A program made the position numbers and the translations under genes. The notes below the pieces were generated by a model. The model had not been told where the DNA came from. It searched no databases and was given only the letters and a program-made list of their open reading frames with translations. Below, in pieces: positions 7,913 through 42,555 of a DNA stretch of 64,000 nucleotides (position 1 is its first letter; each line of letters starts with the position of its first letter). The DNA is taken from assembly GCA_965227145.1 (NCBI GenBank), contig OZ245730.1:2467374-2531373 (forward strand), given 5' to 3'. The DNA is from Calditrichia bacterium. Lineage in GTDB: Bacteria > Calditrichota > Calditrichia > RBG-13-44-9 > J075.

Positions 7913-7932
7913 ATTCCTGCATTTGCAGGAAT
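7913..7932. repeat. 20-bp REP/dRS3-like palindrome
   Basis: ATTCCT-GCATTTGC-AGGAAT has the 6-8-6 architecture of ATTCCC-N8-GGGAAT repeats. Single copy seen in this window. Confidence 0.4.
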
Positions 7933-14663: not shown

Positions 14664-14775
14664 CTCGTTATGTTTTTTAATTTCAAAAATTACACATTAT
14701 TGGCGTTGGGTGAATTTGATAGCGTTTGAAAATAACACATCACAAATTAATTGTCAAATTGTTGAAAAATTGAGA

Positions 14776-17780: not shown

Positions 17781-19466
17781 CTATTCTGATTCAAAAAATT
17801 GCTGTATTTCGTCATCCAAACCGAGGTATTCCCAACGCAACAGCGCGATCGGGACGTTCCCATTGAGCATCAGGTAATCGTGGAATTTGCGCAGCTCAAA
17901 ATTCTCTTTTTTGAGAATTTTTGCATCGCTTAATAGTTTGATTATTTGCAACTTACCAATCTGATATGTAATTGCCTGTCCGGGATTATATGCAAAAAAT
18001 CCGGCTTCCTGCACCGCGGTTGCCATATCCATCGGAACGGTTTTCGCGAGATATTCGCCGGCTTGCAGAATAGAAAAAGTGCCCAAAGCCAGCCGGATAT
18101 CAACCTCAACCCGCAGTGCCCGCAGGCGCATAAAATTGTAGATAATTTCACGGGTTTTCGGGCGATCGTCAAATAATCCGAATTGGTGCATCATTTCTTC
18201 GACATAAAATCCGATGCCTTCGTTTGCGCCGGAATCGATATACGCCCGGCGGATCGGGCGGGGATTTTTCCACGAAATCGCCATTTGGAAATAGTGTCCC
18301 GGAACGCCTTCGTGAACAATCAGCGGACGCGGATCAATCGCACGGGACAAATTAAAATAGGACAAATCGCGACTCGGTTCGGGAATGTAGCTGATGCCGT
18401 TTTCATCCAACCGCGTTTCCGAAGTGAGGTCGTCGACAACGCCCATGTTGGTAAACGGTGCGAGATATTCCGGCACCGGACGGTTGAGATAATGCTGCAG
18501 CCAATCCGGCACACTCATGATATTTTTGGATTCCATAAAATCACGGATCGCCTGCTCATCTTTTTTAGCCTGCTCAATTTGCGATTCGGTACCCGGAAAA
18601 ATAGGCGGTTCCGGCAACGCTGAATTGCGCAATTTTTCGAACGTTTCGAAAGCGACTGAGCGCTGCCATTCCTGTTGACCCTGTGCCAACAGCGTCTCGG
18701 GCGAGTAGGGGATGAGGGCAACATTTTTCAGAAAATAAACATAGTTTTCGCGCCCAACGCTGAATTTGTCGCTCATTTTCAACCGGTTTTTTTTCAGCCA
18801 ACTGGTGTAACTGAGCAATGCGGCGGCGGCGTTGTCGGTCGCTTTCAATAATTTTGAGCGATATTTATTTGAGGTGATGTCACTGAGTTTTGTGAATAAT
18901 ACATCCATTTTTGTCATCACATCGCCGATGTTATCCAACGCTATTTCAGCAAATGGACGGACGCCCTCGGTGAGGTTCGTTTTTGCGGCTTCCACCGTTT
19001 TGTGAAAACTGTTGAGCCGGATAATAATTTCGTTGACACGTTCGTCCGTCATGGGAGAGCTGATCAGCAGCAACTCGAAAACCGATCCCAGCGTTTGGTG
19101 AACATAAAAATCGGGATTCCGGTGCGGTTGCCGCAACACGTTCAATTCCCAATTGACCCGTTCGATCATCGCGCTGAGGCAGAGAAAATCCACGCTGTCT
19201 TCGCGTGTCCATCCGGTTTTCGGTAGCTCATCCAGTTTTTTGCGAAATTCGCTGTATTTCCCGCGATTGTTTTCCAACGCAGCCGGGGAGAAATCCGGCG
19301 TCCATCCGGCGGGGCGTTCAACCCGTGGAATATCGTCGCCTGCAACCGGCTGTGTGACTAATCGCCAATCGCGAAAGTCCTCATAAAGTTTTAATAAATC
19401 CGGGTTTGTTTGTGCAAAAATATTCGCAGAAATGAACAACAAAAAAATCCAGATTAAAAATCGCAT
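17781..19466 (-). CDS. DUF885-family secreted protein (probable zinc metallopeptidase)
   Basis: Signal peptide after MRFLIW (RBS GAGGGG); HEGVPGHYFQ, NEGIGFYVE, PGQAITYQIG and G.VP..LL motifs of DUF885. Confidence 0.85.
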   Translation of the reverse strand: MRFLIWIFLLFISANIFAQTNPDLLKLYEDFRDWRLVTQPVAGDDIPRVERPAGWTPDFSPAALENNRGKYSEFRKKLDELPKTGWTREDSVDFLCLSAMIERVNWELNVLRQPHRNPDFYVHQTLGSVFELLLISSPMTDERVNEIIIRLNSFHKTVEAAKTNLTEGVRPFAEIALDNIGDVMTKMDVLFTKLSDITSNKYRSKLLKATDNAAAALLSYTSWLKKNRLKMSDKFSVGRENYVYFLKNVALIPYSPETLLAQGQQEWQRSVAFETFEKLRNSALPEPPIFPGTESQIEQAKKDEQAIRDFMESKNIMSVPDWLQHYLNRPVPEYLAPFTNMGVVDDLTSETRLDENGISYIPEPSRDLSYFNLSRAIDPRPLIVHEGVPGHYFQMAISWKNPRPIRRAYIDSGANEGIGFYVEEMMHQFGLFDDRPKTREIIYNFMRLRALRVEVDIRLALGTFSILQAGEYLAKTVPMDMATAVQEAGFFAYNPGQAITYQIGKLQIIKLLSDAKILKKENFELRKFHDYLMLNGNVPIALLRWEYLGLDDEIQQFFESE

Positions 19467-19532
19467 AATTCCCCTCAAAAAATTTACGGTGTTGCGCAAT
19501 AGCAGAAAAATTGTGGTAATTGATTACATCAA

Positions 19533-19577
19533 AAACCGGAGTTTGACATGAGCATTTTTTCAGTCAAACTCCGGTTT
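19533..19577 (-). terminator. Intrinsic terminator after nagB
   Basis: 15-bp perfect inverted repeat AAACCGGAGTTTGAC / GTCAAACTCCGGTTT, followed by a T tract on the minus strand. Confidence 0.7.
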
Positions 19578-19651
19578 AATGTATTTCCAACTCAACTTAT
19601 GATATTCGATTGAATTATCCAACCCGGCATTGATGATGCGCGGAAAAAATA

Positions 19652-22006
19652 TCAGCGGTTTTCAACAGCGCGCATGAGTTCGCGGCTGCTGGCGTAAAAT
19701 TCCGGCAAATCCATTTCTTTGATGAACACCAAACCACGGGTTGCCCGGATAAGCGGGCTGGCGTTTTCGTAAAACCATTCGCGCCCGAGGCAAATTTTCA
19801 TCTTTTGGTATTGCTCAACCTGGATGCGCTGTGCCAGCTCAGAGAACGGACCGTCGTGCTCATAACTGGGGAAGGAAGCCGCTTTTTGCGAGCTGAACGA
19901 ATTCAAAAATGAGGTTTGCATCACAGCAAACATGTTCAGCGAAACCGGCACAAAAATATTCGCTTCCGACGGGTGAAACCGATACCAGACGTTGCGATAT
20001 CCCCACACTTTGATATCCGATCGACCGGAGCTTTTTTCATATTTTTTCAACGCTTCGGTAACGGCTTGCAGCACTTTGTAATGGGTGTCCGGGCCGCTGG
20101 CTTCCGGGTCGAACGCCACGGTCACGATATCCGGGTTTACTTCTTCCAGCAACCGGACAATCGGCACCACATCGCGCTCGATGGTCGGCTCCTCTGTAAA
20201 AATATCGCCGGTGTAAAACCCGAGCCGCAGGTGCTTCACATAATCGCAATTCCAGCCGAAATAGCCCCACAAACATTCCGCTTCCCATTCGCGGCTCATT
20301 GCTTTCAGGCTTTGGATATGCGGCAAATCTTTTTTTCCGGGATACTCGGTTTTGAAATAATGCATCAATTCGGAGATGCGATTTTTGATGCCTTTGAGAT
20401 CATCTTCATCATAAACTTCGATGAGATTGCGGAGCAGCCGCCGGGCTTCGCCCTCATTTTTGATGGTGCGGCTTTTCATCGCCACGCCGTCGAGGTATTG
20501 CCAAACATCGCGATTGCGTCCGTTGAGATTATCTTTCGCGAAATAACCGGTGTCGTGCAACCCCTCAAATTCTGGTGAATCGAGCACTTCCAGCAATTTT
20601 TCCAACTGCCCGATCATAAATTGATTGGACACGGAAGTAAACCCACCGGTGAAACAACTGAAATAATGGGTGTTGCTGGCATCGCGAATGTGACGCACCA
20701 CATGCGGCAAATAGCCGAGCATGATATCGTCGTGATGCGGCTCGGTGTGTAAAAAGCGTTTGTTGCTGTGTTTCGAAATACCGCATTCCAGTTTGGTCAT
20801 CAAATCATCGCGGACAGCTTGAAGGGTATCTTTCAAATTTCCGCTGTTTTTTTTGAGCATCACTTTGCCGAGCATGTCTTCACGAAAATCCGACGGGCTG
20901 AGCGCGGTAATCGATTTGCGGGCGTTCACCGCTGTGTCCACCACAATTTTTTCGATAGTTTCCGACGCCAGCGGATCTTCCATTTCGATGAGCGCTTTCT
21001 GACGCTCTTTCATCAGTTTTGCGGCGCCGCGTGTGATGTAAAATCGGGCGTTCGCCAATTGTTGCAACACCGTTGCGGGATACAGAATGTTCGGCGGATT
21101 TTCAATCGCATCGCGGATAACCGACGCTTTTGCTTCACCTGCGGCGATAATGATAGCCACACATTGCGGGTTGTACGCGATGGTTCCTAAACCGATGGTG
21201 ATCACCAGCCGGTTGCGGGAAATCTCGATGCCACCGAGATCCGTCGCCGCCGAAGCTTGCGTTTCGTAGTTGGTCGGCGTCAGCCGGGTTGTCGAATAAT
21301 GATCCGATCCGCTGACATTGAAGCCGATGTGCCCGTCCGGGCCGATCCCGCCGAGGAAGAAACCGATCCCGCCCATTCCGCGAATGATCTCCTCATATTC
21401 CTGGCACCATTGATCGATGCGTGCCAGCATATCGCGCTGGCGGCGTTCTTCGCGGGTTTTGCCGTAGCGGTAGCGCAGCGAGAGGTCAACGGTGTGGTTT
21501 GGCCAGACATCGGACAGCGATTCGCCGGGCTCCAGCCCGATTTTTTCGCAATTAATCAGCATCGCACGATCGCGTGAAAGCCCGAAACTCTCGATATAAA
21601 ATTGCCTGATATACGCGTAAAAACTGTTGTGCTGTTTGGGATTGATCGGATAAAACTCATCGATTTGAACAAATCGCAGCCCGTTCATTTCCGGTTTTTT
21701 GGCGGGATTCAATCCGCTTTCTTCCAGAAATTTGCGCATTTCCGGGTTTTCCCAATTGCGTTGAATATGGGTGACCCATTTGATAAAATGCTCGGGTGTT
21801 TTTCCGGTTGGCAGCGAAATTACGCCTTCGGGATTTTGCTGAACCCATTCCAGAAATCGCATCGCAGCCAGTTTTCCGAGCGCCGGAAAATTGTCAACGA
21901 TGATCGTCGGAATTCGCTCCGTTACCGGGTTAAAATCTTTAAACAATGATTTTTGCAGTGCGGCGTTTTCCACAGGGCTTAACGTCACACGATCTTTGCG
22001 TGGCAT
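19652..22006 (-). CDS. nagB: Glucosamine-6-phosphate deaminase fused to a PIG-L/LmbE-family deacetylase domain
   Basis: NagB motifs SLPTGKTP, DEFY, GGIGPDGHIGFN; PIG-L motifs TEPHHDD and GPDTH. Confidence 0.88.
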   Translation of the reverse strand: MPRKDRVTLSPVENAALQKSLFKDFNPVTERIPTIIVDNFPALGKLAAMRFLEWVQQNPEGVISLPTGKTPEHFIKWVTHIQRNWENPEMRKFLEESGLNPAKKPEMNGLRFVQIDEFYPINPKQHNSFYAYIRQFYIESFGLSRDRAMLINCEKIGLEPGESLSDVWPNHTVDLSLRYRYGKTREERRQRDMLARIDQWCQEYEEIIRGMGGIGFFLGGIGPDGHIGFNVSGSDHYSTTRLTPTNYETQASAATDLGGIEISRNRLVITIGLGTIAYNPQCVAIIIAAGEAKASVIRDAIENPPNILYPATVLQQLANARFYITRGAAKLMKERQKALIEMEDPLASETIEKIVVDTAVNARKSITALSPSDFREDMLGKVMLKKNSGNLKDTLQAVRDDLMTKLECGISKHSNKRFLHTEPHHDDIMLGYLPHVVRHIRDASNTHYFSCFTGGFTSVSNQFMIGQLEKLLEVLDSPEFEGLHDTGYFAKDNLNGRNRDVWQYLDGVAMKSRTIKNEGEARRLLRNLIEVYDEDDLKGIKNRISELMHYFKTEYPGKKDLPHIQSLKAMSREWEAECLWGYFGWNCDYVKHLRLGFYTGDIFTEEPTIERDVVPIVRLLEEVNPDIVTVAFDPEASGPDTHYKVLQAVTEALKKYEKSSGRSDIKVWGYRNVWYRFHPSEANIFVPVSLNMFAVMQTSFLNSFSSQKAASFPSYEHDGPFSELAQRIQVEQYQKMKICLGREWFYENASPLIRATRGLVFIKEMDLPEFYASSRELMRAVENR

Positions 22007-22055
22007 GATAAACTCACTCTTTTTTGTTTTAATAAATAGTCATCTAAACATCAAA

Positions 22056-22976
22056 CTATACTGAAGTTATCTCCAATGCTTTTCGGACAAAACCGTTGCT
22101 TTGAACCAACCGTTGCCGGGCGGTTTCGGCATCCACATCAGCAAGAATCATCACCAATGCCGTTTTGACATGCCCTTTCGCTTTCGCCAATACAGTAACG
22201 GCGGTTTCGTAATCGACGCCGGTAACCATCATCACCGTACGTTTGGAACGCTCTTCCAGTTTGCGGGAAGTCATCATCAAATCGACCATCATATTGCCGA
22301 ATACTTTTCCCATGCGAATCATCGATGCGGTGGTGAGCATGTTCAGCACCAATTTGGTGGCGGTGCCGGCTTTCATCCGGGTGGAACCCATCACCACTTC
22401 CGGCCCGACAACCACACAAATGGCGATATCCACCGGAAAGGTAATTCGTTCGCGCGGGTTGCAGGTGACAAAAAGGGTTTTCGCGCCCATTTCGTGGGCT
22501 TTTTCCAACGCACCGAGCACATACGGCGTACGGTAGCTGGCGGCAATGCCGCAGAGCACATCGTTTTCGGTGAATCCGCGGGCGAGCAAATCTTTTTGCC
22601 CCTGCTCATGTTTATCCTCGCTGCCTTCCTGCGCGCTGATCAACGCTTTTTCGCCACCGGCGATAATGCCCTGAACCATTTCCGGCGATGTGCCAAAAGT
22701 AGGTGGGCATTCTGCCGCATCGAGCACGCCCAGCCGTCCGCTGGTTCCCGCGCCGATATAAAATAAACGCCCGTTATTTTTGAACGTTTCGACGAGCAAA
22801 TCCACCGCTTTCGCGATATAGGGAATTTCCTGCTCAACGATTCCGGGAATTTTTTGATCTTCTGTATTGATAATCCTGAGGATTTCCTCGGTTGTCTTGC
22901 TGTCAATTTCTTCCGATGCGGGGTTTCTTGCCTCCGTCACAAGATTTTCAATTTCTTTAAAAACACCATCTTGCAT
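22056..22976 (-). CDS. murQ: N-acetylmuramic acid 6-phosphate etherase
   Basis: TEARNP, GAGTSGRLGVLDAAECPPTF, GPEVVMGSTRMKAGTATKLVLNM, VFGNMMVD. Confidence 0.96.
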   Translation of the reverse strand: MQDGVFKEIENLVTEARNPASEEIDSKTTEEILRIINTEDQKIPGIVEQEIPYIAKAVDLLVETFKNNGRLFYIGAGTSGRLGVLDAAECPPTFGTSPEMVQGIIAGGEKALISAQEGSEDKHEQGQKDLLARGFTENDVLCGIAASYRTPYVLGALEKAHEMGAKTLFVTCNPRERITFPVDIAICVVVGPEVVMGSTRMKAGTATKLVLNMLTTASMIRMGKVFGNMMVDLMMTSRKLEERSKRTVMMVTGVDYETAVTVLAKAKGHVKTALVMILADVDAETARQRLVQSNGFVRKALEITSV

Positions 22977-22978
22977 GC

Positions 22979-23821
22979 TTATCTCTCCTGATGTGAATCG
23001 CGCTGGTAGAGTATTGGGTTCAGCGCTGTTTGTATGGTTTCACCTTGCTGAACGCCCGGGCAAAACGCATCGCGATCCAACGCCTGATTTTCATTTTCGG
23101 GTGCCTTTAGCTGCATATCAATGTCCATATAAATGATGGTCATTACTTTACGCGGATTTGGCGTTGTGTTCGGTCCGGCCCGGTGGAACGTCCAGCCATA
23201 GTGAAAACTTACTTCACCCGGATCGAAAGATTCCTGAATATATTCAAATTGTTGTTTTTTCAGTGCTTCGGCAATTTCTTTCTCGCTTTCATCGCTGATT
23301 TTGAAATTGCGTCCGCCGGAGAAGGTGTGGCTTTTGGCGGAGAATGCCAACGGCCCCATATCTAATGAGGTGCGCTGCAACGGAATCCAGACCGTGCAAC
23401 ATTTTTCGGTAGCCAACGGCCAATAATATTGATCGGCGTGCCACGGCGTAAATCCGCCGCCGGGTTCTTTATATAACGCCTGATCGTGATATAGCCGGAC
23501 ACCGCGGGTGCCCAACAGCTCGGCAGCAATGCCGGCCAACCGTTTGCTGAACACAAACGATTTCACAATGTCGCTGTGCTGCCACAGATTGGTAACCTGC
23601 AAAAACGCCTGCTGATAGGTATCCCGTTCTGCCATCGGTTTTTCGTGAAGATTGTTCAGTTCGAATACCTTTTTGGTAATTTCCCGGGCGTAAGTATCCA
23701 GATCAAACGGTGAAAGCACATCGCGAATTTTGATAAAACCGTTGCTCCGGAAAAACTCAATTTGTTTTTCGGAAAGCGGAAACGGTTCGTTTAATTCCCA
23801 ATGATTTGAAATGTCTGACAT
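22979..23821 (-). CDS. Fe(II)/2-oxoglutarate dioxygenase, PhyH family
   Basis: F..NGFI; TPWHAD (HxD); TVWIPL; FHRAGPN.T..PR (distal His and 2OG-binding Arg). Confidence 0.88.
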   Translation of the reverse strand: MSDISNHWELNEPFPLSEKQIEFFRSNGFIKIRDVLSPFDLDTYAREITKKVFELNNLHEKPMAERDTYQQAFLQVTNLWQHSDIVKSFVFSKRLAGIAAELLGTRGVRLYHDQALYKEPGGGFTPWHADQYYWPLATEKCCTVWIPLQRTSLDMGPLAFSAKSHTFSGGRNFKISDESEKEIAEALKKQQFEYIQESFDPGEVSFHYGWTFHRAGPNTTPNPRKVMTIIYMDIDMQLKAPENENQALDRDAFCPGVQQGETIQTALNPILYQRDSHQER

Positions 23822-23837
23822 TGTACATCCAATAGTT

Positions 23838-25586
23838 TTATTTTAATGCTTCCCAATTTCTGGCGCTTAAATCCCACATGATAAAACCGAAACCGAGTGC
23901 AGCAATCAGCAGCAATCCCAGACCCATTAGCGTTTCGCCGAGCAACAATTTACCGAAACCGAACAGCGCGGAATAAATCATGATGATACCGGCGAGCCAG
24001 TCGAGCAAATCGCGACCCAATCCGGTATCCGCTTTCACATCCGGCGCTTTCGCTGCGATGGGTTTCCACATGCTGCCGCCGGGACGTGTTTTGCGATAAA
24101 ATTTGATCAGCGTTTCCTCGGTTTCCGGCGCGGTTAAAAATGTAACCGTCAGCCAGGTTATTGTGCTGATGCCAACCGTAATCAACATGACCATTGCAAA
24201 ACCGTGGGCATCGTTGGTATCCATCCCCAAAACGCTTTGCAACACAATCGAAACAATCAGAGATGCGAGCATCGCCGAAATTTCCGACCATGCGTTAATT
24301 CGCCACCAAAACCAGCGCAAAATATAAACCGATCCGGTGCCCGCGCCGATCGCCAGCAAAAATTTCCACGCGCCGGCGATGGTCTCCATTTGGGAAGTAA
24401 TGAGTGCGCCGGCGATCACCAAAAACACGGTGGAAATTCGAGCGGCCATAACATAATGTTTTTCGGACGCATCCGTTTTTACAAACCGTTTGTAAAAATC
24501 GTTGATCAAATATGAACTGCCCCAGTTGAGCTGAGTGCTGACAGTGGACATAAACGCCGCTGCAAAAGAGGCGAGCATCAGCCCTTTGAAACCGGTCGGC
24601 AGATAATTGAGCATCACCAAAATGTAGCCGGTTTGTTTGTCTTCGACATTCGGAAAAAGCACCAAACTGGTCAGCGCAACCAGCACCCACGGCCACGGGC
24701 GCAACGCATAATGCGCAATATTGAACCATAGCGTCGCCAGCAGCGAATGGCGTTCGTTTTTGGTGGCGAACATCCGTTGGGCAATGTAACCGCCGCCGCC
24801 CGGTTCCGCCCCGGGATACCAGGCTGCCCACCAGTTCACCGCCAGATACACAAAAAATGCGGTCAACGGCATCCAGACAGATCCGATTTCCGGCGTAAAA
24901 TTGAGAATTTGATGATCCGCACCGTATTGGGCAATCAGCCCTGTTTTTAGCCCGTCGATGCCGCCAACGGCATCAACAGCAAAAAACGCCAGCGCAATCG
25001 AGCCAACCATCGCGATGATAAATTGCAGAAAATCGGTGACGACCACGCCCCACAATCCGCTGAGTCCGCTGTATAATAATGTTACCAAAACGCAAATCCC
25101 GACCGCAACCCATTTGTCCACACCGATAGATAATTCGATAATTTTGACCATCGCCAGCGTTACCCAACCGAGAATAATCAGGTTGATCGGAATTGCGAGA
25201 TAGAGCGCCCGGAATCCGCGCAAAATGGCCGCCGGTTTGCCGGAATAACGGATTTCGGTGAACTCGACATCGGTGAGCACCTCCGCCCGTCGCCACAACC
25301 GCGCAAACAGGAAAACGGTGAGCAAACCGCTCATCAACATGTTCCACCAGAGCCAGTTCCCGGCGATGCCGTGATTGGCTACCAGTTCGGTTACCGCCAG
25401 CGGCGTATCTGCAGCGAACGTGGTTGCAACCATGCTGGTGCCGGCCAGCCACCACGGCAGGCTGCGCCCGGATGTAAAATATTCCACAATATCGCCACCG
25501 GCTTTGCGGGAAAAATAAAGCCCGATGCCCAGTGCCAGCACAAAATAAACCGCGACAAATGTCCAGTCCAGAAAACTAACTTGCAT
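23838..25586 (-). CDS. Sodium:solute symporter (SLC5 family)
   Basis: YFTSGRSLPWW, SMVATTFAADT, AQRMFAT, AAFMST..QLNWGSSY motifs; multi-TM. Start placed at MQVSFLD, overlapping the upstream stop. Confidence 0.9.
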   Translation of the reverse strand: MQVSFLDWTFVAVYFVLALGIGLYFSRKAGGDIVEYFTSGRSLPWWLAGTSMVATTFAADTPLAVTELVANHGIAGNWLWWNMLMSGLLTVFLFARLWRRAEVLTDVEFTEIRYSGKPAAILRGFRALYLAIPINLIILGWVTLAMVKIIELSIGVDKWVAVGICVLVTLLYSGLSGLWGVVVTDFLQFIIAMVGSIALAFFAVDAVGGIDGLKTGLIAQYGADHQILNFTPEIGSVWMPLTAFFVYLAVNWWAAWYPGAEPGGGGYIAQRMFATKNERHSLLATLWFNIAHYALRPWPWVLVALTSLVLFPNVEDKQTGYILVMLNYLPTGFKGLMLASFAAAFMSTVSTQLNWGSSYLINDFYKRFVKTDASEKHYVMAARISTVFLVIAGALITSQMETIAGAWKFLLAIGAGTGSVYILRWFWWRINAWSEISAMLASLIVSIVLQSVLGMDTNDAHGFAMVMLITVGISTITWLTVTFLTAPETEETLIKFYRKTRPGGSMWKPIAAKAPDVKADTGLGRDLLDWLAGIIMIYSALFGFGKLLLGETLMGLGLLLIAALGFGFIMWDLSARNWEALK

Positions 25587-27075
25587 CGGCGCCTCCGCGT
25601 AGTGCGTTCGAGATGATGCCAACCACAATAGTGGTCAGGCTGCCGACAACCGTATATAGCGGCCAGGCGATTTGAACCATTTGGATCACGATCGTCATCA
25701 CGATCAGCGCAACGATAAACCCGACGATCGCATCCGTTTCTTTTGCTTTCGCATACACCAGTCCGAGCAGAAAAGTGCCGAGCAGACCGCCGTATGTATA
25801 TGATGCAATACCGAGCGCTACTTCAACGACTGTGCCTTCCAGTCCGATAAAAAGAATGGCAACGCCAACCAAAATCACGCCCCAGATTATTGTCGCCAAT
25901 CGGGACGTTTTGAGTTGCTGCGCCTCTGTTTTGTCCTTTCCGAACAGCGGCAAATAAATATCGAGCACCGCCGCGCTGGACAAGCTGGAAAGGCTGCTGG
26001 AGAGCGTGCTCATCGCCGCGGCAAACAGCGCAGCGACAATCAACCCGCTGATGCCGGGAGGCATTTCTTCCACAATAAATTTGGGAAAAATACCGTCCGA
26101 GCGACTGAGTCCGAGTTCCTGAATACTGGCACCGTTGTAAAACGCAAACAGCATCACACCGATGATCAGGAAAACCAGAAATTGGAGCAATACGGTAAAA
26201 CCGCTGCCGATCATCGCTTTTTTGCTATCCGCGAGATTGCGGCAAGTGAGCACTCGCTGAACAATCAACTGATCGGTTCCGTGCGAAGCCAGACTGAAAA
26301 TTGCGCCGCCGGCAACCGCCGTCAGAAATGTGTAGGAGTTTTTGATGAAATCGGAGAAGCTGAGTTCGAAACCACTGTAAAACCACTGGAATTTGTTGTC
26401 GGGTGCGGCGGCGGCGATAACATCTGAAAATCCGTTGGGTAATTTGTTGAGCATCATCCAACCGGCTAAAATGGCGCCACCCATATAAATTAACCACTGA
26501 ATCATGTCCATCCAAATGACAGATTTAATACCGCCGATATAGGTGTAAACCATTGTCAGCACACCCACCGCGATAATCGCATAAATATAAAATGCCGTGT
26601 TGCTCATTCCGCTGAAAGTGCCGCTGCTTTTCATGATAATTGCCAGCGGAATTGCCGTTGCAAACAGCCGGACGCCGTCGGCTAACAGTCGGGTAATCAT
26701 GAATGTGACGCTGGCGGTGTTGCGCATCCGTTGCCCAAAACGATCGCCCAAAAAGTGATACGCCGTACTCAAATCGCCGCGATAATACGCCGGCAGCAGA
26801 ATCACGGAAACCAGCCCGCGCCCGACCACATAGCCGAACACCAATTGCAGAAACGTCATATTTCCGCCGTAACTCACAGCCGGAATGCCGATAAACGTGA
26901 GCACGCTGGTTTCGGTCGCGACGATGCTGAACATCACTGCGTACCACGGGATCGATCTGCCGCCCAAAAAATAATCGTTGGCAGATTTCTGGTTTCGTCC
27001 GATGTATGCGCCGAATGCCGCAGATGCCGCCATGTAAACAACAACTATAATGATATCAATTGTGGTAAATCCCAT
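25576..27075 (-). CDS. Sodium:solute symporter (SLC5, NIS-like subgroup); candidate MurNAc/amino-sugar importer
   Basis: DYFLGGRSIP, SIVATETS, GTDQLIVQRVL, AAMSTLSSSL; TAATG coupling to the GH3 gene. Confidence 0.9.
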   Translation of the reverse strand: MGFTTIDIIIVVVYMAASAAFGAYIGRNQKSANDYFLGGRSIPWYAVMFSIVATETSVLTFIGIPAVSYGGNMTFLQLVFGYVVGRGLVSVILLPAYYRGDLSTAYHFLGDRFGQRMRNTASVTFMITRLLADGVRLFATAIPLAIIMKSSGTFSGMSNTAFYIYAIIAVGVLTMVYTYIGGIKSVIWMDMIQWLIYMGGAILAGWMMLNKLPNGFSDVIAAAAPDNKFQWFYSGFELSFSDFIKNSYTFLTAVAGGAIFSLASHGTDQLIVQRVLTCRNLADSKKAMIGSGFTVLLQFLVFLIIGVMLFAFYNGASIQELGLSRSDGIFPKFIVEEMPPGISGLIVAALFAAAMSTLSSSLSSLSSAAVLDIYLPLFGKDKTEAQQLKTSRLATIIWGVILVGVAILFIGLEGTVVEVALGIASYTYGGLLGTFLLGLVYAKAKETDAIVGFIVALIVMTIVIQMVQIAWPLYTVVGSLTTIVVGIISNALRGGADAS

Positions 27076-29924: not shown

Positions 29925-30240
29925 GATATGCCTATGGTTTGCTGAGCGGTAAAATTGTGAAGTCACAAAAAAAATGACCAATGCGGCTGTCGCGAATGTC
30001 TGTGTTTTGCTGACTAAGTTAACACAGTTGGTCAACATTATCAATCATTTACGGTGTAAATATTCCAACTCGAAGTAGAAATTGGCGGATTTTCTGTATC
30101 CGACCGGTTCATATATTCTCTTAAAGTTTAATTTTAAAAATATTTTTTATCTACATTTTTTTTAACTGGAAAACATACTATATTAACTGTATATTATGAT
30201 CAAATAGCAGATGTTGAATAAAAATAGTATCGGTTGCGTT

Positions 30241-31113
30241 ATGATGAAGCCTGTTAATGTAAAACTGACGAATTCTCCGCTCTCCTCATTCAAGTTCAAA
30301 AAGATCCATTTACCCGAGTTTGATTTCAACTGGCACTGCCATCCCGAGTACGAACTGATTTTTATGGTGAACAGTAAAGGCAAGCGCTTTATCGGCGACA
30401 GTATTGCCTATTACGAAACCGGCGATCTGTTCTTTCTCGGACCGAATTTGCCCCACACCTGGTACACCAATTCCGTAAAAAATCAACTTGGACATCACGA
30501 TGCCATCCAGATTCAATTTATGGAAAACGTTGCCGGATTGAACATTCGGGAAGCACCGGAATTTTTGACAGTATCCCAAATTTGCGGATTCGCCAGTCGC
30601 GGTTTGCAAATTGAGGGCGAAACCCGCGCCCAAATCGCTGAAATTATGATACGGATGGAAAGCGAAAAAGGGTTGGAACGGCTGATAAGCCTGATGGAAA
30701 TCCTCAACACGCTCGAAAAAGCGGACACAGAAAAAATGTCATTTTTGTCCAGCGTGGAGCTGGCACAGGAATTCCAGCCGGAGCTACAAAGCCGGATAGA
30801 CAAGGTTTGCACCTACATCAACCAAAATTACAAACAACGCCTCAATCTTGAGCAAGCTGCCAAAATTGCCAATATGAGCGTTACTGCTTTCAGCCGGTTT
30901 TTCAAAAAATCGACCGGAAAAACGTTCGTCCAATACGTAAACGAATTGCGAATTGGCCGAGCCTGCAAGCTGCTCATCGAGAGCCAGCTGTCGATTGCCG
31001 AAATTTGTTACGAGGTTGGGTTCAACAATTTGTCCAATTTCAACCGCCGGTTTTTCGAACGCCATAAAATGAGTCCACGCCAGTACCGGCAGGAATTCAC
31101 CAAAAAATTTTAG
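30241..31113 (+). CDS. AraC-family transcriptional regulator (cupin + HTH)
   Basis: WHCHPEYEL cupin; A..ANMS..AFSRFFKK; GFNNLSNFNR.F....MSP.QYR. Alternative start at 30211. Confidence 0.92.
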   Translation: MMKPVNVKLTNSPLSSFKFKKIHLPEFDFNWHCHPEYELIFMVNSKGKRFIGDSIAYYETGDLFFLGPNLPHTWYTNSVKNQLGHHDAIQIQFMENVAGLNIREAPEFLTVSQICGFASRGLQIEGETRAQIAEIMIRMESEKGLERLISLMEILNTLEKADTEKMSFLSSVELAQEFQPELQSRIDKVCTYINQNYKQRLNLEQAAKIANMSVTAFSRFFKKSTGKTFVQYVNELRIGRACKLLIESQLSIAEICYEVGFNNLSNFNRRFFERHKMSPRQYRQEFTKKF

Positions 31114-31260
31114 TCCGGTCGCCGGTTATTAACAACCGGCGATCTATTTTCGGAAAAAGAAATGCCCGGATAATACTGGCAGCAGAATTCCGGGTTCGCT
31201 ATTTTTTTTCTTTTTGATCGGATCACACGGTTAGGAAATTTTTCTGGAAAGCGGTTGAAT

Positions 31261-32361
31261 ATGAAAGAACGACTCGTTTCATTGGACGCATTTCGCGGCA
31301 TTACGATTGCCGGAATGATTTTGGTGAACAATCCCGGAAGTTGGAGCCACATTTACCCGCCACTGGGGCACGCAGCCTGGCACGGCTGGACACCGACAGA
31401 TTTTATTTTCCCATTTTTCCTGTTTATTGTTGGTGTGGCAATGGCATTTTCTTTTCCCGGACAAATTGAAAAACTTACCACACAGCAAATTTATCTGAAA
31501 ATTTTGCGCAGAACGTTAACCCTTTTCGGGCTCGGATTGCTGCTGACGCTGTTCCCGTTTTTCAATTTTGCAGAAATGCGGATTCCCGGCGTGTTGCAGC
31601 GAATTGCTGTTTGCTACGCCATTACATCGATTATTTATCTCAACAGCAATTTGCGTCAGCAAATCGGCATCACCGGAATATTGCTGTTGGCGTATTGGGC
31701 AATCATGAAATTGATACCGGTTCCCGGCTACGGCGCCGGCGATCTGAGCGTTGAAGGCAACCTCGCCGCATACATCGATTTCAGTTTGCTGAAAGGGCAT
31801 ATGTGGAAGGAAACATGGGACCCGGAAGGTATCCTGAGCACAATTCCGGCAATCGCGACCACGCTTACCGGCGTTTTGGCCGGTCACTGGCTGCGTTCCG
31901 GCAAACCCCGCGAAGAAATTGCCGGCTGGATGTTTGTCGCCGGATGGCTGGCGATTGTGGCAGGATTATTTTGGGGCATCGCTTTCCCGATCAATAAATC
32001 GCTGTGGACAAGCTCGTATGTGGTGTTCACCAGCGGTTGCGCGCTGCAATTTCTGGGATTTTGCTATTGGCTGATCGATGTAAAAGGCATCCAGAAATGG
32101 GCGAAACCTGCCATCATTTACGGCATGAATGCGATTGCCGTTTTTGTGTTATCCGGTTTGCTGGCGCGCGTGTTCATTTTTACAAAAATCAGCGGACCCG
32201 ACGGGCAATCCATCTCGTTAAAACAATGGATTTACGACACGCTGTTCACCAGTTGGCTAAGCCCGCTAAATGCATCGCTTGGCTACGCGATTTTAAATGT
32301 GGTATTCTGGCTGGCGATGATGACAATTCTTTATCGGAAACGTATTTTTATCAAAATTTGA
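31261..32361 (+). CDS. HGSNAT-like / DUF5009 (NagX-like) membrane acyltransferase
   Basis: RLVSLDAFRG, D..FP.FLFIVG, IPGVLQRIA, DPEG.LS.IP, PINKSLWTSSY, YG.NAI motifs. Confidence 0.88.
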   Translation: MKERLVSLDAFRGITIAGMILVNNPGSWSHIYPPLGHAAWHGWTPTDFIFPFFLFIVGVAMAFSFPGQIEKLTTQQIYLKILRRTLTLFGLGLLLTLFPFFNFAEMRIPGVLQRIAVCYAITSIIYLNSNLRQQIGITGILLLAYWAIMKLIPVPGYGAGDLSVEGNLAAYIDFSLLKGHMWKETWDPEGILSTIPAIATTLTGVLAGHWLRSGKPREEIAGWMFVAGWLAIVAGLFWGIAFPINKSLWTSSYVVFTSGCALQFLGFCYWLIDVKGIQKWAKPAIIYGMNAIAVFVLSGLLARVFIFTKISGPDGQSISLKQWIYDTLFTSWLSPLNASLGYAILNVVFWLAMMTILYRKRIFIKI

Positions 32362-32407
32362 GTTCAAAACAACGAAATATTCGTACAAAAATTCCCGGAG
32401 TCTTATA

Positions 32408-33385
32408 ATGCGATATGTTTGGATGTGTTTGTTTTTATTTGGTTTAACGATAAATCTTTCTGCACAGTGGCAATCGGCCGGCGAGCCGGTAAAAGTTGCC
32501 GGAAGTGCAGCGGAAGAATTCACAAATCCGGTGTGGTCGCCAACGGACGGGCAATTGATTGCACTCACCAAACCGGATTACCGCGGCATCTGGCTACTGG
32601 ATTTAGCTGATGGCAGCATTCGCCAAATCAGCGACGAAACCGGCGCCGGATTCGGATTCAGTTGGTCGCATAACGGTGCGGCAATTGTCACCCGCGTTGC
32701 CAAATATGAAGGGCGAATTCCCTTTAACGAAATTCTGGTGTACGACGTGGCAACCGGCGATTACCGGAATTTGACGACCACAAAAACCCGTTTTCGCGAT
32801 GTGCCGCGCTGGAGCAGCGATGACGCGCTGGTTTACGCGTTTGCCAAAAAAGATGTGGTTCAATACGAAACCGGATTTGTTGCCGCCAAAGATTCTGTCA
32901 AAAAAAGTAATGCGCTGGTTTACAATAAAAATGGCAAAATCGCTATCAAAAATAACAGCGAAAACGGCGAAGCGATCGCCAAGGTTTACGATCCCGCAAA
33001 AGGCGCGCGATACATTAATATAGCGGTTTCACCGGACGGTCAGAAAATCGCATTTGAAGTGATGGGCGGCAATCTGCACACGATGAATGTGGATGGCAGC
33101 GAACTGGTGGATTTGGGCGAAGGCTATCGCCCGGCGTGGTCGCCGGATGGCAAATATCTGGCATACATGATCACCGAAGATGACGGTCATCGCTTTACAG
33201 CGTCGGATATTTACATTGTTCCGGCAACCGGCGGAACTGCGGTGAACATCACCAAATCCAACGATCGTATCGAGTTAAACCCATCGTGGTCGCCGGAAGG
33301 TGATCAAATCGCTTTCGACGATTATAACTCCGGCGAAGTTTATATTCTGGCGATTCAGCCGGCCGCCGTTCAGGAAGAAAATTAG
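32408..33385 (+). CDS. TolB-like PD40 beta-propeller protein, exported
   Basis: Signal peptide; repeated P.WSPDG / SWSPEG / SPDGQKIAF motifs. Confidence 0.82.
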   Translation: MRYVWMCLFLFGLTINLSAQWQSAGEPVKVAGSAAEEFTNPVWSPTDGQLIALTKPDYRGIWLLDLADGSIRQISDETGAGFGFSWSHNGAAIVTRVAKYEGRIPFNEILVYDVATGDYRNLTTTKTRFRDVPRWSSDDALVYAFAKKDVVQYETGFVAAKDSVKKSNALVYNKNGKIAIKNNSENGEAIAKVYDPAKGARYINIAVSPDGQKIAFEVMGGNLHTMNVDGSELVDLGEGYRPAWSPDGKYLAYMITEDDGHRFTASDIYIVPATGGTAVNITKSNDRIELNPSWSPEGDQIAFDDYNSGEVYILAIQPAAVQEEN

Positions 33386-33429
33386 TGGTGTAAATTATCG
33401 AGAAAAGATGTAAAACAGGAAATTTAATC

Positions 33430-35946
33430 ATGCGTATATCAAATATAATTATCACCTTAGCGGCGATATTTTCTTTACAGGCAACTGCCCAGGTTACCGG
33501 TTTGTCCGGTTGGGATATTTACCTCGATCCGGGGCATAGCCGTACGGAAAACATGGGTATTTACAATTATTCGGAAGCCGAAAAAAACCTGCGCGTTTCG
33601 TTGCACACACTGGAATTGCTGCTGACAACTACCGATATCGACACGGTTTGGAGCAGTCGCTACGACGACAATGTTCAGGTTTCGCTCAGCCAGCGAACAG
33701 ACGAAGCCAACAGTTTGGGTGCGGCGTGGTATCATTCCATCCACAGCAACGCCGGTTCAGCGACGGCAAATAACACCTTGCTGTTGTGGGGGCAATATCA
33801 AAATGGGCTGGAAAAAGTGCCCAACGGCGGCAAAGACATGAGCCGGGACATGATTCCGTTGCTCACCGCTGCAATGCGTATTCCCACCATTGGCGATTAC
33901 GGCGATTGCAGCTTCTACGGCTGCACGTTTACCGGACCTTATTTGCATGTCAATCGCACCACTTTTATGCCGTCCGAGCTCAGTGAATCCGGATTTCACA
34001 CCAGTCCAACCCAAAATACCCGAAATATGAACGCCGAATGGAAACGGATGGAAGCGTATGCTTTCTACTGGTCGATTTTGAAATATCACGGGCTTGATCG
34101 CCCGACCGTCGGCATTTCTGCGGGGTATATTAATGATATCGAACGGGGGATTCCGCTAAACGGCGCGACTGTTGAACTTGCCGGTCAAACTTACACAACG
34201 GACACTTATCAATCGCTGTTTTACAAATACACCAGCGATCCCGATTTGCTGCACAACGGTTTCTACTTTTTCGAAAATGTAACGCCTGGACCGCACCAAA
34301 TGATCGTTTCTGCGGAAGGTTTTGAGCCGGATACACTTACTGTCACGGTTTCGGATACGTTTATTACGTTTACAGATGTGAACCTGATCGACGCCCGCCC
34401 GCCGCTGATTTTAGAAACCATTCCCGCACAAAACGCCACGGAAATCAGCGTTTTTGACAATATTTCCATTAAATTTAGTCGCCGAATGAGCGCCGGTTCT
34501 GTTCAAAACGCACTCTCTTTTGAGCCGCCGCTAACCTACACAACGCAGTGGCAAAACAGCAATCGCAAGTTGGTTCTCAATCCGTCGGACATGCTGCAGG
34601 GCGTGCAATACACAATGACTATCGACTCGACCGCCCGCGATATTTTCAATCACGAATTGGATGGCAACGGCGATGGCATCGGCGGCGATGCGTTTACCCT
34701 CACATTCACCACCGAGGAAGAAGATTTGCTGCCGCCGCAGGTGAACGGTGCGTTTCCGCCCCAAAACGCGGTTAATGTCATTTTGCAGCCCATTATCAAT
34801 CTCGAATTTGATGAAATTATCGATCCTGCGACCATTCAATCCACCAGCGTCGGGCTGAAAAACAGCGTTACCGGCGATCCGGTTCCGGGTTCGTTGCTCG
34901 AATTTCAGGTCAGCGATCGCACCGTTTTCAGCTTTTTCCCGAACGATGCGCTGGAACCGTTAACCCAATATTCCGCAACCGTTCAGCCCGGATTGAAAGA
35001 TTTGTTCGGCAACGAAATCGATACGGAACAACAGTTTAGCTTTACTACTGGAAACGTTGGATATCAGGTAATTACGATCGATCCGTTCCAAAATGACATT
35101 TTGACCAACTGGTGGGACCCGCAGCAAAGCGGCACCACAACCGGTATTTTGACCAACGAAACATCGCGCGGAAACAACAGCATTTATTACAATTTGCTCA
35201 GTGGCAGCAACCGTTCCATGCGGCTGTCGTATGGCTGGGATGTCAGCGCTGGCAACTGGCTGATTCGCGAATATCTCGGCGGTGGAACGCCCCGCGGTAT
35301 ACTTTTTGACGATACCTACATTTTGCAGGTTTACATTTTTGGCGACGGTAGCGACACCAAATTCCGCTTTGCGATAGACGATAACGCCCCGAACGGCAGC
35401 GCAACTGATCACGAAGTGACCGAATGGATGCCCATCGACTGGATCGGCTGGCGGCTCGTTTCGTGGGATTTGGCCAATGACCCGATCGGGACATGGCTTG
35501 GCAACGGCGTGCTGAACGGCGATCTGCGCTTCGACAGCTTCCAGATTTCGTATGACAACACAACCGGCAGCGCGGTTACCGGCGCGATATATTTTGACGA
35601 CCTGCGATTGGTGAAACCGGTTGTCGTGGGCATCGACGATGGGGGAGTGGCGCAAAACATCCCGACCGAACACGAATTGCTGCAAAATTATCCGAACCCG
35701 TTCAACCCGACGACCGAAATCCGGTATGCGGTTGCCAACAGCAACAGTCCGGTAAAACTAACGATTTATGACATGCTTGGTCGCGAAGTGCGAACGCTGG
35801 TCAACACCAGTCAAACACCCGGAAACTACACTGCGACCTGGGACGGTCGCTCGCAAAACGGAAACCAGGTTGCCAGCGGCACGTATTTATACACGCTCAG
35901 CATCGGCGATTTTCGGCAAACGCGGAAAATGTTGCTGCTAAAATAA
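33430..35946 (+). CDS. Secreted N-acetylmuramoyl-L-alanine amidase (Amidase_3) with Ig-like, carbohydrate-binding-like and T9SS/FlgD-type C-terminal domains
   Basis: LDPGH, E..N, SIHSNA and ELSESGF Zn-amidase motifs; two Big_5-like repeats; IYFDDLRL jelly-roll domain; LQNYPNPFNPTT...KMLLLK CTD. Confidence 0.88.
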   Translation: MRISNIIITLAAIFSLQATAQVTGLSGWDIYLDPGHSRTENMGIYNYSEAEKNLRVSLHTLELLLTTTDIDTVWSSRYDDNVQVSLSQRTDEANSLGAAWYHSIHSNAGSATANNTLLLWGQYQNGLEKVPNGGKDMSRDMIPLLTAAMRIPTIGDYGDCSFYGCTFTGPYLHVNRTTFMPSELSESGFHTSPTQNTRNMNAEWKRMEAYAFYWSILKYHGLDRPTVGISAGYINDIERGIPLNGATVELAGQTYTTDTYQSLFYKYTSDPDLLHNGFYFFENVTPGPHQMIVSAEGFEPDTLTVTVSDTFITFTDVNLIDARPPLILETIPAQNATEISVFDNISIKFSRRMSAGSVQNALSFEPPLTYTTQWQNSNRKLVLNPSDMLQGVQYTMTIDSTARDIFNHELDGNGDGIGGDAFTLTFTTEEEDLLPPQVNGAFPPQNAVNVILQPIINLEFDEIIDPATIQSTSVGLKNSVTGDPVPGSLLEFQVSDRTVFSFFPNDALEPLTQYSATVQPGLKDLFGNEIDTEQQFSFTTGNVGYQVITIDPFQNDILTNWWDPQQSGTTTGILTNETSRGNNSIYYNLLSGSNRSMRLSYGWDVSAGNWLIREYLGGGTPRGILFDDTYILQVYIFGDGSDTKFRFAIDDNAPNGSATDHEVTEWMPIDWIGWRLVSWDLANDPIGTWLGNGVLNGDLRFDSFQISYDNTTGSAVTGAIYFDDLRLVKPVVVGIDDGGVAQNIPTEHELLQNYPNPFNPTTEIRYAVANSNSPVKLTIYDMLGREVRTLVNTSQTPGNYTATWDGRSQNGNQVASGTYLYTLSIGDFRQTRKMLLLK

Positions 35947-36358
35947 TCCGGGTTTATTGACTGATTTTATTCAACTTACGATACTGCGGAAAGCGGGCGG
36001 ATGACCTGTCCGCTCCGCTGATTTGCGATGAACGCAACCGTTAAGCAGCACTTTACACCGGACAAATATTCCCATCTGCGAACATTTTCCCATTTCGATT
36101 ATCCGACCGACAACATCTGCCATTGCTTCATCGTTCCGGTCAAAACAAAGCCATTTGTCAAACTCCCTGTTCGCGCATTCACAAAAATTCCAGAATAATT
36201 TTCCATATTTTATAGAACCTATTTTCCGCTGCAGTGTATGTATTTTCAGTAATTTATAAATGTTGCGGCAATTGGCTCGAATGATTATTCCCTTGCGAAA
36301 ACAGGTTGAATTGGTTAAAATTTGCGATGCTTTTTAATATCAGTATTGTGAGGAAACG

Positions 36359-40298: not shown

Positions 40299-40309
40299 TC
40301 AGGCTGCCG

Positions 40310-41287: not shown

Positions 41288-41490
41288 ACAAGTTGTTGCA
41301 ATATTTTGGATGTTGCGATATATTGATTCAATTATCGGTTTTAATTTACTTCTCAAACCATACCTCCTCGCACCCATTTTTCGAAAACCTTTTGTCGAAA
41401 AACCTGACCATTTTATCGATATTTTTTTGATATCTGTTGGGTTTTCCGCAATTTGGAATTATAATGATAACCGTAAACCAGAGGTGAAAA

Positions 41491-42507: not shown

Positions 42508-42555
42508 CCGGAAAATTCAACTCATTTAAAAATTGGCAGTTTAAGGAATCTCATT

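Follow-up and report, generated by a model that had tools for sequence, protein, structure and literature searches.

A divergent locus in an uncultured Calditrichia bacterium that probably catabolizes soluble peptidoglycan fragments

Layout of the locus

The locus described here lies in a 64-kb stretch of DNA from an uncultured Calditrichia bacterium; we refer to this whole stretch, at its full length, as the window. According to the list of open reading frames, region 19652–35946 consists of two divergent arms, set apart by a 286-bp spacer, with ten genes in all, among them genes for a fusion of a NagZ-type glycosidase with an AmiE-like amidase, two Na+ symporters, the etherase MurQ and an exported amidase, and we find that together they probably form a module for the breakdown of muropeptides. 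Pfam and NCBIfam confirmed the families of all ten genes, much as an earlier annotation from the letters alone (the sequence-only reading) had named them, bar small corrections of start codons. The features of the two arms are as follows.

27075–29924, minus strand: GH3–beta-lactamase-fold fusion lipoprotein, 949 amino acids (aa) (Pfam, PDB phmmer, motifs)
25576–27075, minus strand: Na+/solute symporter 1, 499 aa (TIGR00813)
23838–25586, minus strand: Na+/solute symporter 2, 582 aa (Pfam SSF)
22979–23821, minus strand: PhyH-family Fe(II)/2-oxoglutarate dioxygenase, predicted cytoplasmic (Pfam PhyH, 2e-27)
22056–22976, minus strand: MurQ, the etherase of N-acetylmuramic acid (MurNAc)-6-phosphate (TIGR00274 equivalog)
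19652–22006, minus strand: 784-aa protein with NagB-like and PIG-L/LmbE-like folds (PDB phmmer, AlphaFold2, Foldseek)
19531–19577, minus strand: intrinsic terminator of the six-gene operon (14-bp stem and UUUUU; −44.1 kcal/mol, z = −4.85)
30150–30180, minus strand: promoter/operator-like element of the GH3 operon, GTTAA..TAGTAT..TC..G..AAAA..GTAGA (conservation)
30211–31113, plus strand: AraC-family regulator (HTH_18, 5e-25; AraC_binding weak)
31117–31144, plus strand: terminator 3' of araC (11-bp stem with 7 GC pairs, T-run)
31261–32361, plus strand: HGSNAT/NagX-like polytopic membrane protein, 366 aa (NF046061 alignment, HGSNAT match)
32408–33385, plus strand: PD40/TolB-like beta-propeller, 325 aa, with signal peptide (PD40, 9e-14)
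33430–35946, plus strand: N-acetylmuramoyl-L-alanine amidase, 838 aa (Pfam, NCBIfam, AlphaFold2)

The most likely start of the fusion is the ATG at 29924 (MKKILV..., giving 949 aa) instead of the TTG at 30044; those of symporter 2 and the HGSNAT-like protein were moved to 25586 and 31261, and gene callers chose likewise in relatives. Minus-arm genes meet in a 1-nt overlap, an 11-nt overlap and then gaps of 16, 2 and 49 nt, and a hairpin with a U-run (19531–19577) follows the last of them, in agreement with the overlapping or near-abutting genes and single terminator noticed previously. Judged by these junctions, the minus arm appears to be a single, tightly packed six-gene operon with a strong terminator. 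The plus arm comprises at least two transcription units, because a strong terminator directly follows araC; this terminator is kept in the related contigs L005 and L006.

The same gene order recurs in five other contigs (L005, L006, L007, L009 and L010), with PhyH proteins that are 66–93% identical to that of the window, so the arrangement is not a product of chance. Synteny among relatives, which the sequence-only reading had put forward as a check on its proposal, is therefore found. The divergent position of araC is common to L005, L006, L008, L010 and L011. Contigs L014–L016, which carry an identical MurQ, may come from the same population as the window.

The fusion lipoprotein and the two symporters

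In the first protein of the minus arm, Pfam recognizes a GH3 N domain (3e-86), a GH3 C domain and a Beta-lactamase domain (3e-62). In the Protein Data Bank (PDB), the GH3 half is most similar to B. subtilis YbbD/NagZ, which it matches along both domains (3BMX, 4e-83). Residues 206–219 hold the NagZ signature KHFPGHGDTDVDSH, including the Asp-His dyad, so that the protein has the features of a two-domain GH3 NagZ. The C-terminal half has SVTK at residue 643 and HSG at residue 886, with YSD where YxN would be expected; its top NCBIfam model is PBP4B (PBP4B/YfeW), at 195 bits against a cut-off of 385, and the next beta-lactamase-fold family scores 76. In E. coli, the gene for PBP4B adjoins murQP, and the protein is related to B. 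subtilis AmiE; we infer that the C-terminal half is an AmiE/PBP4B-like serine amidase. Cys17 of the fusion aligns with the almost universal lipobox L-x-G-C|AGT of about 50 orthologues, which makes the lipoprotein call sound. The domains, the NagZ motif and this lipobox agree with the description 'GH3-AmiE-like lipoprotein' given before, its amidase part being putative.

Symporter 1 scores 189 bits against TIGR00813, above the cut-off of 184; symporter 2 matches Pfam SSF at 1.5e-33, and the two share just 22% identity and count as unrelated. An orthologue of symporter 1 comes straight after the GH3 fusion in L008 (78% identity), L011 (67%), L012 (63%) and L013 (56%), and in L012 (positions 12814–15564) it forms a single gene with a NamZ exo-muramidase fused at its C terminus, a Rosetta-stone connection of this transporter with the release of MurNAc. 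More distant homologues (36–49%) adjoin genes for a MurK-like kinase, MurQ, GH3, AmiE-like proteins and NamZ in many Acidobacteriota, one Pirellulaceae and one WOR-3. By these neighbourhoods, symporter 1 appears to be a conserved member of muramic-acid clusters and is probably a MurNAc importer; as its orthologues without exception come after the fusion, and the one in L012 is joined to NamZ, it is most likely specific for MurNAc. Orthologues of symporter 2 were found in L013 (46%, beside NamZ) and L088 (53%, beside an AmiE-like gene and symporter 1), and it possibly carries a second substrate, N-acetylglucosamine (GlcNAc) or anhydro-MurNAc.

About 7,800 homologues of the fusion with similar length were scored, and close ones are annotated from Marinimicrobia. 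The fusion followed by symporter 1 is a core that recurs in Calditrichota and Marinimicrobia-type genomes, and the module appears to be widespread. The use of Na+ symporters in place of a phosphotransferase system (PTS) or AmpG, as read from the sequence earlier, is supported. Such symporters are the rule in clusters of this kind outside Proteobacteria and Firmicutes among the loci sampled; the Firmicutes among at least 80 loci fetched with kinase sequences (see below) have the Bacillus gene order instead. A literature search for an MurNAc transporter of the solute:sodium symporter type found no report, and we know of no biochemical characterization of the lipoprotein–symporter module.

MurQ, the 784-aa protein and the kinase step

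MurQ reaches 384.5 bits with the TIGR00274 equivalog (cut-off 302) and 414 bits with NF003915, and the etherase that the MurNAc catabolic pathway of the E. coli and B. subtilis type requires is hence present at the locus. The adjoining 784-aa protein has no match in Pfam at default thresholds, and NCBIfam relates it to 'glucosamine-6-phosphate deaminase-like' proteins. When it was split into halves, PIG-L (19.3 bits; cut-off 28.2) and Glucosamine_iso both appeared below threshold, and phmmer against the PDB detected the NagB half at 3e-17. The AlphaFold2 (AF2) model is confident (predicted local distance difference test (pLDDT) score, 83.6); in Foldseek searches its N-terminal half superimposed on NagB structures with template-modelling (TM) scores of 0.77–0.84, and its C-terminal half matched the PIG-L/LmbE deacetylases 5bmo, 8bgo, 4xm2 and MshB, including LnmX and the archaeal diacetylchitobiose deacetylase. 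Invariant in 41 homologues are D116, D224 and H226, which correspond to Asp72, Asp141 and His143 of NagB, and the PIG-L motif H424-H425-D426-D427 ... D640-T641-H642. The protein thus has both the fold and the H-x-D-D ... H motif (H424, D426, D427 and H642) of PIG-L/LmbE zinc deacetylases, and the name 'nagB-PIG-L' that the sequence-only reading gave it agrees with the model and its structural matches, though Pfam is silent. We propose that it may convert GlcNAc-6-phosphate (GlcNAc-6-P) to fructose-6-phosphate (Fru-6-P), standing in for NagA plus NagB. A literature search for NagB–LmbE fusions found no report. The family (P0241–P0360) is 62–66% identical across Calditrichota, Planctomycetota, KSB1, Latescibacteria and Gemmatimonadota, has a fixed length of about 782–784 aa, almost always escapes Pfam and in other phyla occurs by itself (L097, L098).

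Symport in place of the PTS means that a separate kinase is needed to make MurNAc-6-P. Candidate transporters are present within the 64-kb window, and a kinase route to MurNAc-6-P was not found there. In L008, a kinase gene accompanies the operon, and its product is closest to the MurNAc/GlcNAc kinase structure 8ZO3 (4e-29). A search of genome contigs with this single kinase gave no match; a scan with an alignment of three kinases returned generic BadF/BadG kinases of at most 35% identity, with no Calditrichota among the matches listed. Neither scan is informative about this genome. At least 80 loci from the latter scan were examined for gene context.

The PhyH dioxygenase

The PhyH-family protein is the member of the operon for which the known pathway offers no counterpart. 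Its H128, D130, H207, H213 and R224 are conserved in at least 97% of 121 sequences, and the active site appears to be intact, with the iron triad and the 2-oxoglutarate arginine kept. PhyH also lies between the symporter and murQ in L008, which has a MurK-like kinase as well (upstream of the fusion); a role as positional replacement of the kinase is thereby ruled out, and we regard PhyH as an addition to the pathway, because its position is conserved in two sub-lineages, one of them with a kinase. Its nearest solved relatives are SnoK, SnoN, EvdO2, MysH, EctD and PtlH, several of them enzymes that act on sugar moieties. Homologues about 60% identical in other phyla (L001–L004) do not stand beside murQ, and members of the subfamily there often adjoin AraC regulators, GH4 or a sulfatase. 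Neither PhyH nor the 784-aa protein can serve as a general marker of murein loci, as homologues of 60–65% identity occur in unrelated contexts in Planctomycetota, Lentisphaerota and others.

Enzymes of the TfdA/RdpA type de-etherify aryloxy-alkanoates by hydroxylation, and PhyH might act in the same manner on a muramic-acid sugar, for example by hydroxylating the alpha-carbon of the lactyl group so that the ether splits into sugar and pyruvate. Conserved position and intact active site speak for this idea, which we nonetheless consider very unlikely. Were it true, PhyH would perform an oxygen-dependent, kinase-independent de-etherification of MurNAc or 1,6-anhydro-MurNAc, and the reaction would account for a locus that in this clade has neither kinase nor AnmK.

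Related loci

Contexts in more distant contigs differ in their accessory genes. L008 has araC divergent from genes for a MurK-like kinase, the fusion, the symporter, PhyH, MurQ, an amidohydrolase, an L-Ala-D/L-Glu epimerase-type protein and an alanine symporter, and its other arm holds NamZ and an HGSNAT-like gene. In L011, araC diverges from kinase, fusion and symporter genes and one for a NAGPA protein with a type IX secretion system (T9SS) tail; L012 comprises an HGSNAT-like gene, Amidase_3, NagB, kinase, fusion and the symporter fused to NamZ. L013 runs from GH18, NagB, NagA, alanine racemase (7606–8727), HGSNAT-like, fusion and symporter genes through diaminopimelate (DAP) decarboxylase (14485–15750) and a T9SS-tailed GH18 to NamZ, the orthologue of symporter 2 and an LdcA-type LD-carboxypeptidase (21849–22808). 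The presence of DAP decarboxylase, alanine racemase and LdcA inside a murein-sugar locus suggests that loci of the L013 type may salvage amino acids of the stem peptide along with the sugars. NamZ (GH171) is present in L008, L012 and L013; Pfam and tblastn found none in the window, L005, L009, L010 or L014.

None of the at least 80 kinase loci has PhyH, the 784-aa protein, an HGSNAT-like gene, the propeller, the multidomain amidase or DUF885. As they are absent from those loci, these six appear to be lineage-specific additions.

Past the terminator of the six-gene operon, three further genes are conserved in the closest relatives (L005, L006, L007, L009, L010 and L014).

17781–19466, minus strand: DUF885 protein with signal peptide, putative metallopeptidase (DUF885, 1e-55)
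16272–17765, minus strand: APC-family amino-acid permease (AA_permease_2, 8e-40)
14776–16242, minus strand: aldo/keto reductase (AKR) fused to a Rid domain (Aldo_ket_red, 4.5e-59; Ribonuc_L-PSP, 3.5e-22)

The DUF885 gene directly follows the gene for the 784-aa protein in L005, L007, L009 and L014. We extend the locus leftward to 14776, because the gap between the two is only 17 nt in L009, where they form one unit. The DUF885–permease–AKR/Rid unit probably handles peptides.

The plus arm

The plus arm ends in the amidase, which consists of a signal peptide, Amidase_3, CarboxypepD_reg, two Big_5 domains, a beta-sandwich domain and a T9SS type A tail. The tail scores 38.4 bits against TIGR04183 (cut-off 23), and its QNYPNPFNP is nearly invariant in the family, so that the protein combines the signal peptide and the type A C-terminal sorting domain of T9SS cargo. 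All of 55 full-length homologues share the zinc and catalytic residues H36, E49, H105 and E186. In the AF2 model (pLDDT 92.8), the catalytic domain superimposes on compact, non-autoinhibited enzymes (C. difficile 4RN7, TM 0.86; CwlV, 0.82; AmiC2, 0.81), with lower scores on division-type amidases (E. coli AmiA, 0.63–0.65; E. coli AmiC, 0.41; Bartonella henselae 3NE8, 0.60). The sequence-only reading would have fallen had the amidase been division-associated and not secreted; signal peptide, tail and structural matches instead point to an exported enzyme that is not division-associated. There are 517 representative clusters of the amidase at E ≤ 1e-30, and about 70 keep the multidomain architecture.

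In related murein loci we observed NAGPA and GH18 proteins at L011:5395–7839, L012:7820–9013 and L013:15762–18209. The tails of the L011 NAGPA and the L013 GH18 are 38–40% identical to that of the window amidase, and the sorting domain would thus be common to several exported glycan-degrading enzymes of these lineages. The propeller also matches TolB structures (1e-7), and its gene and that of the amidase occur as a pair in L005, L010 and L014.

The HGSNAT-like protein aligns over its full length with the NagX model NF046061, at 198.4 bits, far short of the equivalog cut-off of 480. It matches human HGSNAT at 1.4e-22, with His37 aligned to the catalytic His297 (8VKJ), and the equivalent of His37 is kept in orthologues from L008 (75% identity), L010 (77%), L013 (59%) and L012. 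It is probably a transmembrane N-acetyltransferase, a function that we favour because the catalytic histidine is conserved; it or the symporters are also candidates for a transporter role of the MurT type. No HGSNAT-like gene was seen beside the at least 80 kinase loci.

A rival reading is a general amino-sugar locus, for chitin, GlcNAc or glucosamine glycans, in which MurQ would be incidental. The NagX family is known from chitin and glucosamine utilization (PMC9007349), the 784-aa family stands alone in other phyla, and L013 has GH18 genes. Yet MurQ, the AmiE-like domain and Amidase_3 are all specific for MurNAc-peptide bonds, Pfam and NCBIfam found no chitinase at the locus, and the conserved partners elsewhere are NamZ, MurK, LdcA, DAP decarboxylase and alanine racemase. 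We find a general amino-sugar function hardly plausible.

Regulation and expression

A 45-bp element is conserved in the spacers between araC and the GH3 or kinase gene of the window, L010, L008 and L011; it is unique in the window, where 0.01 occurrences would be expected by chance. An operator common to both arms was not found, the only shared 8-mers being A/T-rich. In four wastewater metatranscriptomes, contigs that are 92–97% identical to the window, and hence from a related strain, cover the 784-aa gene, murQ, PhyH, both symporters, the fusion, araC, the HGSNAT-like gene and the propeller/amidase region, so both arms are probably transcribed in nature. Two of these contigs reach past the ATG of the fusion, to 30021 and 30101, just downstream of the conserved element, which fits a promoter at the element and a leader no shorter than 177 nt (29925–30101). 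This leader is poorly conserved in L010. Rfam found nothing in 19400–36400 at E ≤ 0.1, and no known riboswitch in the 5' leader.

Mechanism and source of the substrate

From the gene content we propose the following course. The fusion lipoprotein, most likely periplasmic, would act on GlcNAc-MurNAc-peptides, taking off first GlcNAc and next the stem peptide, in the order of NagZ before AmiE that is established for B. subtilis. The two symporters would import the released monosaccharides, symporter 1 taking MurNAc and symporter 2 GlcNAc or anhydro-MurNAc. A kinase not encoded at the locus, of the MurK type in related loci, would make MurNAc-6-P, which MurQ would convert to GlcNAc-6-P and D-lactate; the PIG-L domain of the 784-aa protein would then deacetylate, in the role of NagA, and its NagB domain deaminate, yielding Fru-6-P. 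Control of the operon would lie with the divergent AraC protein, acting at the element at 30150–30180. The second plus-arm unit would widen the substrate range: outside the cell, the T9SS-tailed amidase would cleave peptides off murein, and on the outer side of the inner membrane the HGSNAT/NagX-like protein may re-acetylate de-N-acetylated amino sugars, which would open them to NagZ and the later steps. The released peptides would probably be handled by the DUF885–permease–AKR/Rid unit.

Where the fragments come from is a separate matter. The sequence-only reading held that the locus feeds on the walls of other cells rather than recycling its own. An exported amidase does argue for an external substrate; the second half of the claim is unsupported, because a periplasm-facing NagZ–AmiE lipoprotein is equally suited to the turnover products of its own cell. 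The B. subtilis NagZ and AmiE orthologues are secreted, and they recycle that cell's own wall (PMC8054146).

Pfam and tblastn found no lysozyme, lytic transglycosylase, NamZ, TonB-dependent importer or SusCD importer within the locus. The receptors of a polysaccharide utilization locus, SusC/D or TonB-dependent, are absent from 14776–36000, and the nearest TonB-dependent receptor (43551–45815) is haem or B12 receptor-like. As nothing there cuts glycan strands, the locus alone cannot dismantle intact sacculi, and with no NamZ the exo-enzymes would stall after one GlcNAc and one peptide. With no glycan-strand cleaver, NamZ, outer-membrane importer or sugar kinase, the locus suits soluble muropeptides of any source.

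Lack of an outer-membrane importer and of a glycan-cleaving enzyme would also fit a purely housekeeping role, in which the products of periplasmic turnover of the cell's own wall are trimmed and taken up again, where Proteobacteria use the AmpG/AmpD/cytoplasmic-NagZ route instead. The lipoprotein has no obvious surface-export signal after its lipidated cysteine, an MltF-like lytic transglycosylase is encoded downstream (10402–11922) and directly after AKR/Rid in L009, and the B. subtilis orthologues have just this function. Recycling of the own wall only is nevertheless unlikely in our judgement: a T9SS-tailed, non-autoinhibited amidase, once exported, cannot reach its own sacculus, the pathway ends catabolically (in D-lactate and Fru-6-P) rather than anabolically, Gram-negative turnover yields 1,6-anhydro-MurNAc, which needs an AnmK that is not linked here, and related loci carry exported GH18 and NAGPA with the same tail.

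The converse, dedicated feeding on the walls of other cells, whether as necromass or after predatory lysis, with no recycling of the own wall, could draw on an amidase that is predicted to be secreted and keeps its multidomain architecture across those roughly 70 clusters, on neighbouring lineages that live on exogenous muropeptides (PMC11652737, PMC5388701) and on a locus that ends in glycolysis and has a peptide-handling unit downstream. Against it stand the absence of lysozyme, lytic transglycosylase and NamZ, such that glycan strands would not be shortened beyond the first GlcNAc, and of TonB-dependent or SusCD uptake; moreover, an amidase by itself leaves Gram-negative prey unlysed as long as the outer membrane is intact, and self-derived fragments may be substrates as well. 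We regard dedicated feeding as quite improbable.

We therefore favour the catabolism of soluble muropeptides, derived from neighbours or from the cell itself, by the fusion, the symporters, an unlinked kinase, MurQ and the 784-aa enzyme, and consider it probable. Strong comparative evidence supports the part of the sequence-only reading that saw here a locus for the catabolism of murein sugars, with NagZ, MurQ, an AmiE-like amidase and an enzyme resembling NagB at its centre. Several observations weigh against this view. No kinase for MurNAc, anhydro-MurNAc or GlcNAc, and no NagA, NamZ or LdcA, was found in the window or the loci of its closest relatives; tblastn with kinase, NagA, NamZ, LdcA and Amidohydro_3 queries from related loci gave no matches in the window, L005, L009, L010 or L014. 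The AmiE assignment is based on fold, SxxK and PBP4B proximity only. In the 784-aa protein, the NagB-like domain has Val231 in place of Glu148 of E. coli NagB and scores below the cut-offs of NagB (TIGR00502, 85.9 against 236.9 bits) and PRK02122. PhyH is without a place in the known pathway. The conserved element is absent before the second plus-arm unit and the DUF885 unit, which leaves co-regulation of the arms unsupported, and the RNA evidence consists of low-depth contigs from a related strain, for which DNA carry-over is possible.

Surroundings and occurrence

The MltF-like gene (SBP_bac_3 and SLT domains) lies on the same strand as the operon; in the window an Omp85-family gene (12084–14663) stands between it and AKR/Rid. 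Right after the amidase, 36359–43476 holds co-oriented genes unrelated to murein, for GT2, TMEM260-like GT-C, flippase-like, DUF4837 and PfkB proteins; the PfkB kinase (42556–43476) has weak ribokinase-type matches only and is not an obvious MurNAc kinase.

The best matches of several locus proteins are from Calditrichia or Calditrichota metagenome-assembled genomes, and the same DNA was found in soil, bioreactor, activated-sludge and algae-associated metagenome runs. Runs with the complete interval 22056–30044 (X1–X3, X22–X23) are filed under named organisms, one of them with Hi-C libraries; the partial ones are soil, bioreactor, sludge and algae metagenomes. The bacterium may have been assembled as a cobiont in a eukaryote sequencing project.

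Significance and comparison with known systems

Peptidoglycan is a large necromass pool of carbon and nitrogen, and its consumption by uncultured bacteria of the Fibrobacterota–Chlorobiota–Bacteroidota (FCB) group is poorly documented. Our comparisons suggest that a NagZ–AmiE lipoprotein followed by a dedicated Na+ symporter is the common non-proteobacterial solution. The locus offers a candidate family of MurNAc:Na+ symporters and a widespread 784-aa enzyme, unseen by Pfam, that may replace NagA plus NagB; the PhyH dioxygenase is a further target in muramic-acid metabolism, with a putative role.

A close parallel in function is the 'muropeptide rescue' operon murQ-murR-murP-amiE-nagZ-namZ (ybb) of B. 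subtilis, in which NagZ, AmiE and NamZ digest sequentially (PMC8054146). The mechanism proposed above, the one best supported, carries the logic of this operon over to a diderm cell. Both systems have an extracytoplasmic NagZ (of the two-domain YbbD type, the best match here) and a beta-lactamase-fold amidase that act in sequence, followed by uptake of monosaccharides and cleavage of the lactyl ether by MurQ. Unlike in B. subtilis, however, NagZ and the AmiE-like domain form one lipoprotein and there is no NamZ at the locus; Na+ symport without phosphorylation takes the place of the MurP PTS, and an AraC regulator that of MurR (RpiR). PhyH, the NagB/PIG-L fusion (with PIG-L for NagA), the HGSNAT-like protein, the T9SS amidase and the propeller are extra.

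In Tannerella forsythia, the cluster Tanf_08345–08385 encodes ampG, namZ/ybbC and murT-murK-murQ under the regulator GppX, and scavenging of exogenous muropeptides has been proven (PMC5388701, PMC5790795, PMC7670621). It shares with the present locus membership of the FCB group, non-PTS uptake of MurNAc before MurQ and a regulator with an AraC-type DNA-binding domain, whereas MurK lies in its operon, AmpG takes up disaccharide fragments, and the organism is a MurNAc auxotroph with a mainly anabolic pathway. TfMurT has been described as a sodium-symporter-superfamily protein (PMC5790795) and as a distant relative of NagX (PMC9007349). NagX itself (the SO_3504 family) is a proposed transmembrane glucosamine N-acetyltransferase related to human HGSNAT (PMC9007349); the HGSNAT-like protein resembles it in its full-length alignment to the NagX model and in the conserved acetyl-carrying catalytic histidine, and differs in a score far below the equivalog cut-off and in a muropeptide context as opposed to chitin or glucosamine utilization.

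Fidelibacter multiformis IA91 (Fidelibacterota/Marinimicrobia), from a neighbouring phylum, grows on exogenous muropeptides of other bacteria (PMC11652737). As proposed here, muropeptides are its source of carbon and energy by way of MurNAc-6-P and D-lactate; IA91 cannot make its own wall, whereas nothing in the present data suggests auxotrophy. What look new are PhyH, the PIG-L fusion in place of NagA and the pair of T9SS amidase and propeller; the attached DUF885 unit and the lack of a linked kinase or NamZ are further features of this variant. As a whole, the locus is of a known kind, a peptidoglycan-fragment catabolic module that follows the same logic as those of Bacillus, Tannerella and Fidelibacter.

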